DNA of 64,000 nt from assembly GCF_058153355.1 (NCBI RefSeq), contig NZ_CM177019.1. The stretch is one strand, 5' to 3'. Below the pieces are notes generated by a model. That model ran no database searches and was not told the DNA's origin. It saw only the letters and a program-made list of their open reading frames with translations. Numbering within the stretch: the first letter of the stretch is position 1; each line of letters begins with the position of its first letter. Below are positions 57,977-60,647 of this stretch, piece after piece. The translations under genes were made by a program, and so were the position numbers.

Positions 57977-58074
57977 TCTGTCACTTACCGACCTTAACCG
58001 TAAGCGTCTTATCAGGACCGTCTGGCAAATTCCCGATGCTTTGGACAAAGTATCCACCACTAAATTAATAGTGG

Positions 58075-58503
58075 GTGATAAAAATGTCAGATATACAAAA
58101 AAATGCCTCTCCGGGAAGGCCTAAAGGGTGCCTGAATTATCCTCCTGAATTCAAACAACGACTCATAGAAGCATCATTCCAGCCAGGTGTTTCAATTTCC
58201 AGACTGGCCCTGGACAATGGTATTAATGCCAATCTGTTGTTCAAATGGCGTCAGAAATGGCGGCAGGGGAAGATAAAATTGCCATCATCAGAATCAGGCA
58301 GAGAATCTCAGTTAATTCCTGTCACTATTGATGCCCAACTCCCAACTGCTCCGGCTAATGAGCCACTGACCGCAAGACCGTCAGTAACACCGGAAATACA
58401 CAGCATCTCCTGTGAGATTACGTTCAGAAACGGCACCCTTCGGTTGAACGGGGCAGTGAATGAAAATCTGCTGTCCTTGCTTATACAGGAGCTGAGACGG
58501 TGA
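58075..58503 (+). CDS. IS66-family accessory protein TnpA (orfA)
   Basis: 142-aa ORF with HTH-like N-terminus; first of the IS66 three-gene set. Confidence 0.85.
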   Translation: MIKMSDIQKNASPGRPKGCLNYPPEFKQRLIEASFQPGVSISRLALDNGINANLLFKWRQKWRQGKIKLPSSESGRESQLIPVTIDAQLPTAPANEPLTARPSVTPEIHSISCEITFRNGTLRLNGAVNENLLSLLIQELRR

Positions 58504-58847
58504 TATCTCTCCCTGCAGGTTCGCGTATCTGGCTGGTTGCAGGTATCACCGATATGCGAAATGGCTTTAACGGCCTGGCCTCAAAAGTTCAGAACGTCCT
58601 GAAGGATGACCCGTTCTCCGGGCATCTGTTCATCTTCCGCGGACGCCGGGGTGACCAGATAAAAGTGTTGTGGGCTGACAGTGACGGACTGTGCCTCTTC
58701 ACCAGACGCCTGGAGCGGGGCCGCTTCGTCTGGCCGGTCACCCGTGACGGCAAGGTGCACCTTACTCCGGCCCAGTTATCCATGCTTCTTGAGGGCATCG
58801 ACTGGAAACACCCGAAACGAACGGAACGCGCTGGCATCCGCATATAA
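58500..58847 (+). CDS. IS66-family protein TnpB (orfB)
   Basis: 115-aa ORF MISLPAGSRIWLVAGITDMRNGFNGLA..., overlaps the orfA stop. Confidence 0.85.
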   Translation: MISLPAGSRIWLVAGITDMRNGFNGLASKVQNVLKDDPFSGHLFIFRGRRGDQIKVLWADSDGLCLFTRRLERGRFVWPVTRDGKVHLTPAQLSMLLEGIDWKHPKRTERAGIRI

Positions 58848-58866
58848 CCCGTTGTAAAGTGAGGAT

Positions 58867-60438
58867 ATGGACACCTCACTTGCTCATGAGAATGCCCGCC
58901 TGCGGGCACTGTTGCAGACGCAACAGGACACCATCCGCCAGATGGCGAAATACAACCGCCTGCTCTCACAGCGGGTGGCGGCTTATGCTTCCGAAATCAA
59001 CCGGCTGAAGGCGCTGGTTGCAAAACTGCAGCGCATGCAGTTCGGTAAAAGCTCAGAAAAACTTCGTGCAAAAACCGAACGGCAGATACAGGAAGCACAG
59101 GAGCGAATCAGCGCTCTTCAGGAAGAAATGGCGGAAACGCTGGGTGAGCAATATGACCCGGTACTGCCATCTCCCCTGCGCCAGTCTTCAGCCCGTAAAC
59201 CGTTACCTGCCTCACTTCCCCGTGAAACCCGGGTCATCCGTCCGGAAGAGGAATGCTGCCCGGCCTGTGGTGGCGAACTCAGTTCTCTGGGATGTGATGT
59301 GTCAGAGCAACTGGAGCTTATCAGCAGCGCCTTTAAGGTTATCGAAACACAACGTCCGAAACTGGCCTGTTGCCGGTGCGACCATATCGTGCAGGCTCCG
59401 GTGCCTTCAAAACCCATTGCACGCAGTTATGCCGGAGCGGGGCTTCTGGCCCATGTTGTCGCTGGAAAATATGCAGACCATCTGCCGTTATACCGCCAGT
59501 CAGAAATATACCGTCGTCAGGGCGTGGAGCTGAGCCGTGCCACACTGGGGCGCTGGACAGGTGCTGTTGCTGAACTGCTGGAACCGCTGTATGACATCCT
59601 GCGCCAGTATGTGCTGATGCCCGGTAAAGTCCATGCCGATGATATCCCCGTTCCGGTCCAGGAGCCGGGCAGCGGTAAAACAAGGACTGCCCGGCTGTGG
59701 GTCTACGTTCGTGATGACCGTAACGCCGGTTCGGAAATGCCTCCGGCGGTCTGGTTCGCGTACAGCCCGGACCGGAAAGGTATCCATCCACAGAATCATC
59801 TGGCCGGTTACAGCGGAGTGCTTCAGGCCGATGCTTACGGTGGTTACCGGGCGTTGTACGAATCCGGCAGAATAACGGAAGCCGCATGTATGGCTCATGC
59901 CCGGAGAAAAATCCACGATGTGCATGCAAGAGTGCCCACCGACATCACCACGGAAGCCCTGCAGCGTATCGGTGAACTGTATGCCATCGAGGCAGAGGTC
60001 CGGGGCTGTTCAGCAGAACAGCGTCTGGCGGCAAGAAAAGCCAGAGCCGCGCCACTGATGCAGTCACTGTATGACTGGATACAGCAACAGATGAAAACAC
60101 TGTCGCGTCACTCGGACACGGCAAAAGCGTTCGCATACCTGCTGAAACAGTGGGATGCACTGAACGTGTACTGCAGTAATGGCTGGGTGGAAATCGACAA
60201 CAACATCGCAGAGAACGCCTTACGGGGAGTGGCCGTAGGCCGGAAAAACTGGCTCTTCGCGGGTTCTGACAGCGGTGGTGAACATGCTGCGGTGTTGTAC
60301 TCGCTGATCGGCACATGCCGTCTGAACAATGTGGAGCCAGAAAAGTGGCTGCGTTACGTCATTGAACATATCCAGGACTGGCCGGCAAACCGGGTACGCG
60401 ATCTGTTGCCCTGGAAAGTTGATCTGAGCTCTCAGTAA
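58867..60438 (+). CDS. IS66-family transposase TnpC
   Basis: 523-aa ORF with N-terminal leucine-zipper-like region, CxxC...CxxC zinc-finger and DDE domain. Confidence 0.88.
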
Positions 60439-60647
60439 ATATCAATACGGTTCTGGCGAGCCGCTTACCCTTAACCGCATTCAGTTTCGTGAGAAATTCA
60501 CCGGGCAGCTACTGGTCAATGTGGATAAAGGTCGCGTGGTGAGTAATTACCACCTGCCAGATGAAGCAATTGTCGCAACAAGGGAATCATTACAGGAACT
60601 CGCAGAACGTGCCGGAATGATTAACGCGAATATTCAGGGGGTGAAAC

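Follow-up and report, generated by a model that had tools for sequence, protein, structure and literature searches.

Insertion sequences (ISs) of the IS66 family are 2.4–2.7 kb long. They carry tnpA, tnpB, and tnpC in that order, with an overlap between tnpA and tnpB; they end in imperfect terminal inverted repeats of about 20–30 bp that start with GTAA; and they duplicate 8 bp of the target DNA. The reference elements, IS66 and IS679, and the definition of the family were reportedly described by Han et al. (J Bacteriol, 2001) and Gourbeyre et al. (Res Microbiol, 2010). Among satellites, the core set of the phage-inducible chromosomal islands (PICIs) comprises an integrase, an AlpA-type (AlpA/MerR/Stl) regulator, a primase-replicase, a capsid-morphogenesis gene, and a small terminase, whereas P4-like satellites have seven core components (integrase, psu, delta, sid, alpA, epsilon, and alpha) (PMC10085698). 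Here, we analyze an IS66-family element in a 64,000-nucleotide (nt) stretch of contig NZ_CM177019.1 (RefSeq assembly GCF_058153355.1), which we will refer to as the window. The element (58000-60468, + strand) lies within a small gene of a satellite-type island that is integrated at tRNA-Gly(CCC). Its gene layout, its type of inverted repeat, and its 8-bp target duplication are those of IS66 and IS679, to which it is only distantly related in sequence. We are highly confident that an IS66-family element transposed cleanly into this small gene of the island; the event is real, ordinary, and of a kind that is already known.

A perfect 8-bp direct repeat, CCTTAACC, brackets the 2469-bp element, with the left copy at 57992-57999 and the right copy at 60469-60476. 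We checked the two copies with a script and by reading the sequence: they are identical, and each directly abuts an end of the element. Read inward, the termini of the element are GTAAGCGTCTTATCAGGACCGTCTGG on the left (58000-58025, + strand) and GTAAGCGGCTCGCCAGAACCGTATTG on the right (60443-60468, - strand; the + strand carries its reverse complement). These terminal inverted repeats match at 19 of 26 positions, and their first seven bases (GTAAGCG) are the same. Elsewhere in the window, CCTTAACC is found just once on the + strand (at 2317) and once on the - strand (at 33633).

The corresponding empty site is present in E. coli ETEC1749. It reads CACTTACCGACCTTAACCGCATTCAGTTTCGTGAG, which is the left flank from the window, one copy of CCTTAACC, and the right flank, and if the element is excised in silico, the result reproduces the ETEC1749 sequence base for base. 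The restored stretch of 238 nt is uninterrupted, as a single match, in 615 of the 5426 complete E. coli genomes that we compared. The junction between the IS66-family element and the island was absent from all of these genomes and from the collections of genomes and metagenome contigs that we scanned. Together with the perfect duplication and the intact open reading frames (ORFs) of the element, the absence of this junction from the scanned collections suggests that the insertion is recent. Mechanistically, the DDE transposase TnpC would have cut the target with a stagger of 8 bp, and repair of the gaps would have given rise to the duplication of CCTTAACC. The insertion point spans codons 9-12 of the target gene, which has 69 codons and belongs to the early/replication operon of the PICI-type island at tRNA-Gly(CCC).

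Deleting the element and one copy of the repeat yields a continuous ORF of 69 codons (MINLSLTDLNRIQFREKFTGQLLVNVDKGRVVSNYHLPDEAIVATRESLQELAERAGMINANIQGVKHE). The ATG of the restored ORF, at 57969, overlaps the stop codon of the preceding icd-like gene (ATGATTAA). At the other end, the next ORF, with its ATG at 60648, begins before the stop codon of the restored ORF (60653-60655), in an overlap that reads ATGAATAA. In the window, what is left of the gene is a 5' fragment with codons 1-11 (57969-57999, + strand) and a 3' fragment that runs from the rest of codon 12 to codon 69 and the stop codon (60477-60655, + strand, as seen in the sequence and from the comparison with ETEC1749). The 11-codon head continues into the IS to form a 51-codon fusion ORF (57969-58124), of which 40 codons are IS-derived, and the last 58 codons have no start. 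The insertion has destroyed this small gene. The first-pass annotation of the window, which was made from the sequence alone, had described an IS66-family insertion with an 8-bp duplication that splits a small island ORF, along with the overlaps of the restored ORF with both of its neighbors. All of this stands: on re-inspection, the two flanking copies are the same, the related sequence without the IS is exactly the empty site that was predicted, and intact homologs of the restored ORF are found in the 615 genomes, with proteins that are up to 98% identical.

The split gene is real and is conserved within these islands. At the intact site, the Prokaryotic Genome Annotation Pipeline (PGAP) annotates a hypothetical protein of 70–71 amino acids directly 3' of an “Icd-like” gene, and the N-terminal 40 residues are well conserved. 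The family is narrow. An exhaustive HMMER search of 1.8 billion proteins found only 20 cluster representatives, all of them close relatives; the product has no match in Pfam or NCBIfam; and tblastn against 50,697 phage genomes found no match. A model from AlphaFold2 (mean predicted local distance difference test score of 71) has a short helix, a beta-hairpin, and another helix. Directly downstream is an intact paralog of 66 codons (60648-60848, + strand). Its product is 44% identical to that of the split ORF over 39 amino acids (BLASTP, E = 4e-9), and both are assigned to phrog_340 in PHROGs. In other islands, the phrog_340 homologs are 66–121 amino acids long and contain a domain of about 45 residues (FTGxxLVxxxxGxV...EL) either once or twice, with two copies in the 121-amino-acid forms. 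These tandem paralogs form a small and fast-shuffling gene family that is restricted to these islands. For annotation, the split ORF should be treated as a pseudogene that derives from a member of phrog_340.

The genes of the element are intact. The first gene, tnpA (58084-58503, + strand), encodes a helix-turn-helix accessory protein of 139 amino acids that matches HTH_Tnp_1 from Pfam and IS66_ISRel24_TnpA from NCBIfam (NF047595 at 88.9 bits, with a cut-off of 74). The second gene, tnpB (58500-58847, + strand; 115 amino acids), starts with a GTG that overlaps the stop codon of tnpA as GTGA; its product matches TnpB_IS66 (PF05717, E = 7e-40) and IS66_TnpB from NCBIfam (NF033819). The third gene, tnpC (58867-60438, + strand), encodes the DDE transposase of 523 amino acids. 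TnpC matches positions 1-283 of the 284 in DDE_Tnp_IS66 (PF03050, E = 4e-104), contains LZ_Tnp_IS66, zf-IS66, and DDE_Tnp_IS66_C (all from Pfam) as well, and scores 479 bits against transpos_IS66 from NCBIfam (cut-off 180, E = 9e-144). The element thus has the TnpC domain, the overlapping tnpA and tnpB upstream of tnpC, the GTAA inverted repeats, and the 8-bp duplication that characterize the family, and with a full set of domains and NCBIfam matches above the cut-offs, its assignment to the IS66 family holds. As its ORFs and both of its ends are intact and copies lie at differing sites elsewhere, the element is apparently still functional.

The closest relatives of the element show that it is a mosaic. 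Against the complete E. coli genomes, bases 502-2469 are about 97% identical to copies of the ISCro1 family (annotated by PGAP as “IS66-like element ISCro1 family transposase”), whereas the first 501 bases have no match to these copies. The break falls at the boundary between tnpA and tnpB. On the right side of the break, the two elements have similar tnpB and tnpC genes (97.4% and 98.7% identity at the protein level) and a common right inverted repeat (...GAGCCGCTTAC). On the left side, TnpA is just 37.5% identical (139 versus 216 amino acids), and the left inverted repeat begins with GTAACCG in ISCro1 but with GTAAGCG in the window. A complete ISCro1-like copy (locus L005) is 2704 bp long, as compared to 2469 bp for the element in the window, encodes the TnpA of 216 amino acids, and has an 8-bp duplication of its own, GATTTAAG, on both sides. 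The GC content also differs between the left ~500 bases of the window's element (46% for 58000-58500) and the rest of it (54–59% for 58501-60468), and separate relatives of the left module, with 92–96% identity, exist in E. coli.

The full arrangement of 2469 bp is found on plasmids of Escherichia albertii (NZ_CP070285.2, NZ_CP070282.2, and others), at 95.7–95.9% DNA identity. These copies have the same length, ends, and three genes as the element in the window and differ from it in insertion site and duplication. There are 102 mismatches, or about 4% divergence, which are spread evenly, and the proteins are 97–98% identical. That the ends recur in an E. albertii plasmid copy with another 8-bp duplication (GAATAAGG) independently supports the boundaries of the element. 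By the convention of ISfinder, an isoform has over 95% DNA identity and/or over 98% transposase identity. Compared with ISCro1, the element reaches 98.7% identity in TnpC and 97% over bases 502-2469, but it has no relationship to ISCro1 in its first 501 bases, its left repeat, or tnpA. Given that the whole arrangement also occurs elsewhere with another duplication, the element is best described, judging from these comparisons, as a discrete and mobile member of the IS66 family: a relative of ISCro1 with an exchanged left end and a shorter tnpA module. It is a further variant of the ISCro1 group and a minor mosaic, and it illustrates modular shuffling within IS66-family elements.

What does the insertion do to the island? 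The split ORF is one link in a chain of tightly spaced genes, most of which overlap by their start and stop codons. The chain begins with the 62-codon icd-like gene (57788-57976, + strand; NCBIfam phage_ICD_like, NF033153, E = 2e-19) and continues through the split ORF, its paralog, and a DUF4222 gene (60853-61152, + strand; PF13973, E = 2e-24) to a P4-family primase (replicase), whose 5' part is at 61149-62170 (+ strand; D5_N from Pfam, phrog_864 “DNA primase,” and the junction sequence). Just upstream is the immunity region, with an isrK-type small RNA (57506-57583, + strand; RF01394, 68.8 bits) and a C4-type antisense (immunity) RNA (57646-57733, + strand; RF01695, 79.9 bits). A scan for promoters and terminators found a promoter-like site (57470-57499) and a terminator-like hairpin (57563-57577) for isrK. 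Because the disrupted gene is within an overlapping chain that is driven from the isrK/C4 immunity region, the 2.5-kb insert probably has a polar effect and lowers the expression of the downstream genes (the paralog, the DUF4222 gene, and the primase).

A second insertion in the same chain is more damaging to autonomous replication. The primase ORF (61149-62189) ends within an IS110-family element that starts at 62171, and in a homologous island (locus L004), the missing C-terminal part of the primase resumes after the IS. This lesion in the primase probably makes the island replication-defective. The loss of autonomous replication is the best-founded of the functional consequences that we infer, and it follows from the IS110-family lesion rather than from the IS66 one. 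The integrase, AlpA, AntA, icd-like, and DUF4222 genes, as well as the genes for the isrK and C4 RNAs, look intact. The first-pass annotation had combined the two insertions to conclude that the island had undergone serial inactivation and to suggest that it has lost its function as a satellite. The IS110-family insertion in the island is there, and it does split the primase, as the junction and the comparison with L004 show. Serial inactivation is plausible and is only partly shown: both insertions are real, the small gene is destroyed, and the primase is split. As to the loss of satellite function, a replication defect is probable via the split primase, but the broader claim is not established, as the split ORF has no Pfam or NCBIfam hit and falls in a family labeled “unknown function,” the paralog and the other visible genes are intact, and the island continues past 64000.

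The order of the two insertions bears on what the IS66 element contributed. The island might have been dead before the IS66-family element arrived, with the IS110-family element entering the primase first and the IS66-family element later, neutrally, into decaying DNA. This would fit with the primase being split by an ISSso6-like element and with the presence of the same primase-IS junction elsewhere, in E. coli islands free of the IS66 insertion (H92 is 99.4% identical over the shared part); the IS66 junction was found nowhere else in the scanned collections. But the IS110-family element is site-specific and has used the same site in the primase independently in a diverged island, and all of the other visible genes of the island are intact. 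Also, a single sequence does not reveal which of two events came first. We consider an earlier death of the island to be quite possible, and we lean slightly against it.

A related question is whether the IS66 insertion matters at all, in whatever order the two events occurred. It would be functionally neutral if the small gene were dispensable, with its tandem paralog as a backup, and if transcription continued through the IS, so that the insertion made no contribution to the loss of function. Several observations point this way and weigh against our account of the insertion as a damaging event. The intact phrog_340 paralog lies directly downstream and is preceded by a Shine-Dalgarno-like sequence of its own (GGGGGTGA, at 5 nt from the ATG). 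The terminator scan found no terminator-like sites on the + strand inside the IS66 element, so read-through transcription is possible. Related islands vary in the number and length of these small ORFs (69–121 amino acids), with domains duplicated or deleted. As for the split gene itself, phrog_340 is labeled “unknown function” in PHROGs, and a Foldseek search of the PDB with the model of its product gave no hit below E = 1. On the other side, the gene is uninterrupted in 615 genomes, its N-terminal 40 residues are well conserved, and the overlapping starts and stops suggest that the chain is translationally coupled. Furthermore, an insert of 2.5 kb of foreign DNA that carries translated genes generally lowers the expression of what lies downstream. 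Overall, we view a neutral insertion as somewhat unlikely.

That the flanking 8-bp repeats are a coincidence, and that the IS arrived by homologous recombination or within a larger composite segment, is a general possibility that fits with the single copy of the element in the window, but it can hardly be correct, as the repeats abut the inverted-repeat ends exactly (8 bases beside two fixed ends would agree by chance once in 65,536 cases), E. coli ETEC1749 has the exact empty site, and two other elements of the family have 8-bp duplications at their own sites.

We return to the island that received the clean IS66-family transposition. Among known satellites, it resembles the PICIs, and the PICI core set is a better fit to its predicted genes than the P4-like set is, because no psu, delta, or sid genes were seen. 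A tyrosine integrase with three domains (52945-54309, + strand; Arm-DNA-bind_3, Phage_int_M, and Phage_integrase from Pfam and PRK09692 from NCBIfam; there is an alternative start at 52906) adjoins the tRNA gene. An AlpA-type regulator or excisionase (55288-55485, + strand) matches Phage_AlpA from Pfam with E = 2.4e-19, along with phrog_66 and phrog_2790. The primase-replicase is represented by the split gene, with D5_N and phrog_864 on 61149-62170 and its 3' part outside the window. Related E. coli islands have the same block of icd-like gene, small ORF, DUF4222 gene, and primase, which is followed by genes for SSB (single-stranded DNA-binding protein), a capsid-type protein, a decoration protein, and a small terminase; in the island studied here, any capsid-morphogenesis and terminase genes would lie past base 64000. 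Epsilon and the psu-delta-sid operon were both missing from the stretch that runs from the integrase to the primase in the window, and we did not see them in the related islands that we inspected either.

The likeness to Escherichia PICI-type satellites extends to gene order: both have the integrase by a tRNA gene, then the AlpA regulator, and then a P4-family primase. The island in the window differs in that its primase is split, and its immunity region, with isrK and C4 RNAs, is like those of the P4/P1 type. Satellite phage P4 itself shares several features with the island: the P4-family primase domains (D5_N and a partial primase_Cterm), an antisense RNA of the C4/CI type that precedes the replication operon, an AlpA-type regulator, and an integrase adjacent to a tRNA gene. 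In contrast to P4, the window and the related islands that we inspected showed no psu, delta, or sid, and the related islands have capsid-type genes instead.

The remaining features of the island can be described from left to right. The integration site, tRNA-Gly(CCC), is at 52707-52780 on the + strand (found by ARAGORN and with the tRNA family of Rfam), and the order xdh-actS-tRNA-Gly is found at the corresponding position in E. coli genomes. The integrase gene has 96% DNA identity to the integrase of the tRNA-Gly island of ETEC1747. Its ORF exceeds that of ETEC1747 by about 50 codons (54160-54309), and the additional tail overlaps a match to the int-alpA RNA of Rfam (54202-54269). We considered a frameshift as the origin of this tail and set the idea aside, because in ETEC1749, an integrase of similar length (470 amino acids) is annotated as intact. 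The next region has two ORFs of 106 and 147 amino acids (54284-54604 and 54624-55067), where ETEC1747 has a single protein of 265 amino acids. The homology between this protein and the two ORFs is confined to about 40 residues at the N terminus and about 100 residues at the C terminus, and the middle differs. By this comparison, the two-ORF region (54284-55067), which we considered as a possible third lesion, looks more like a variant than a clear pseudogene, though it may be a decayed gene. Beyond the AlpA-type regulator is an AntA/AntB-type antirepressor-like gene (55564-56364, + strand; AntA from Pfam and anti-repressor families in PHROGs). A YlcI/YnfO-like gene follows on the opposite strand, before the promoter-like site of isrK. 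We also considered a 539-codon ORF on the + strand (56357-57976) and rejected it as spurious: it crosses the isrK and C4 genes and the divergent YlcI-like region, and only its last 62 codons (57788-57976) are real, as the icd-like gene. The window ends at 64000, which is inside the island, so the genes and the attR site beyond this point lie outside the data.

The element that splits the primase is an ISSso6-like member of the IS110 family, of the IS1111 type (62171-63688, + strand; DEDD_Tnp_IS110 and Transposase_20 from Pfam and transpos_IS110 from NCBIfam). Its transposase gene (62248-63423) is followed by a non-coding region, and the element is 99.7–100% identical to copies of ISSso6 in E. 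coli. We compared its insertion sites across seven loci (L004, L007, L008, L009, L010, L012, and L013). In an island at proL in E. coli O121, another copy interrupts the primase at the same position. The two ISs have 99.7% identity but primase flanks of just 88.9% identity, which points to at least two independent, site-specific insertions of the ISSso6-like element into the primase; a shared junction is then weak evidence of shared descent. In all, the primase site is occupied in three chromosomal contexts: at tRNA-Gly (in the window), at proL, and between fiu and clpS (in strain VL40).

Four other copies of the ISSso6-like element all have the arrangement GTAAG | IS | (AG)CG(T/C)(T/C)AA.... 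For three of these four copies outside the primase, the right flank is the sequence of an IS66-family inverted repeat, and the insertion site is 5 bp inside the repeat; the fourth has the same GTAAG|CG core. Two of the three have a partial tnpC annotated directly beside the element. These flanks make the tips of IS66-type inverted repeats the natural target of the ISSso6-like element, and GTAAG|CGCTGAG in the primase mimics such a tip. The inverted repeats of the window's own IS66-family element share only GTAAGCG with this target, and they are unoccupied.

The non-coding region downstream of the IS110 transposase gene contains CGTTAGCGCTT, which is the complement of AAGCGCTAACG in one target, and it also contains ACGTAAG, which is identical to one left flank. 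The CGTTAGCGCTT segment is thus a candidate for a seekRNA guide. A seekRNA guide has been described for ISEc11, whose target (GTGAAAATACTG) differs from that of the ISSso6-like element (PMC11187229). A search of 62100-64000 against Rfam, with E values up to 1, found no RNA family.

The end of the window is a tandem array, with a 205-bp unit that is present 2.5 times at 100% identity (63484-64000, + strand, identified by Tandem Repeats Finder) and that reaches the last base. The unit comprises the non-coding region downstream of the IS110 transposase gene and the right end of the IS, and it begins at an internal AGCGCT within the guide-like CGTTAGCGCTT segment. Other genomes have one copy of the unit, and the junction between repeats was absent from the complete E. 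coli genomes and from the representative genomes of GTDB. The array may be an artefact of assembly. Alternatively, by analogy to ISPpu9, for which circles with only the ssr9 module have been reported (PMC12288879), it may be the product of the recombinase acting at a pseudo-target.

These observations could tie the two insertions together mechanistically: an RNA-guided ISSso6-like element would target the tips of IS66-family elements, would enter primases as mimics of those tips, and would have given rise to the array when its recombinase acted on its own guide DNA. We think such a link is unlikely. If it were true, then satellite primases would be recurrent RNA-programmed targets, with at least two independent insertions. 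There is little at stake in the IS66 insertion itself, which documents a recent and clean transposition into a satellite-type island. The IS110-family element is the more interesting object, given its apparent site specificity for IS66 tips, the mimic in the primase, and the tandemly amplified guide region, and for specialists in RNA-guided transposition, this side observation is the only part of possible interest.

Outside of the island, the chromosomal backbone at 48000-52900 (xdhA-xdhC, actS, and tRNA-Gly) has no more than 97.2% identity to any complete E. coli genome in the comparison, and because of this level of identity, the host may be from a divergent lineage of Escherichia. The chromosomal part of the window also contains Rfam matches that are unrelated to the island, namely naRNA4 (CssrE; 8030-8107, with matches on both strands of this one site) and ES036 (CssrF; 3170-3212).

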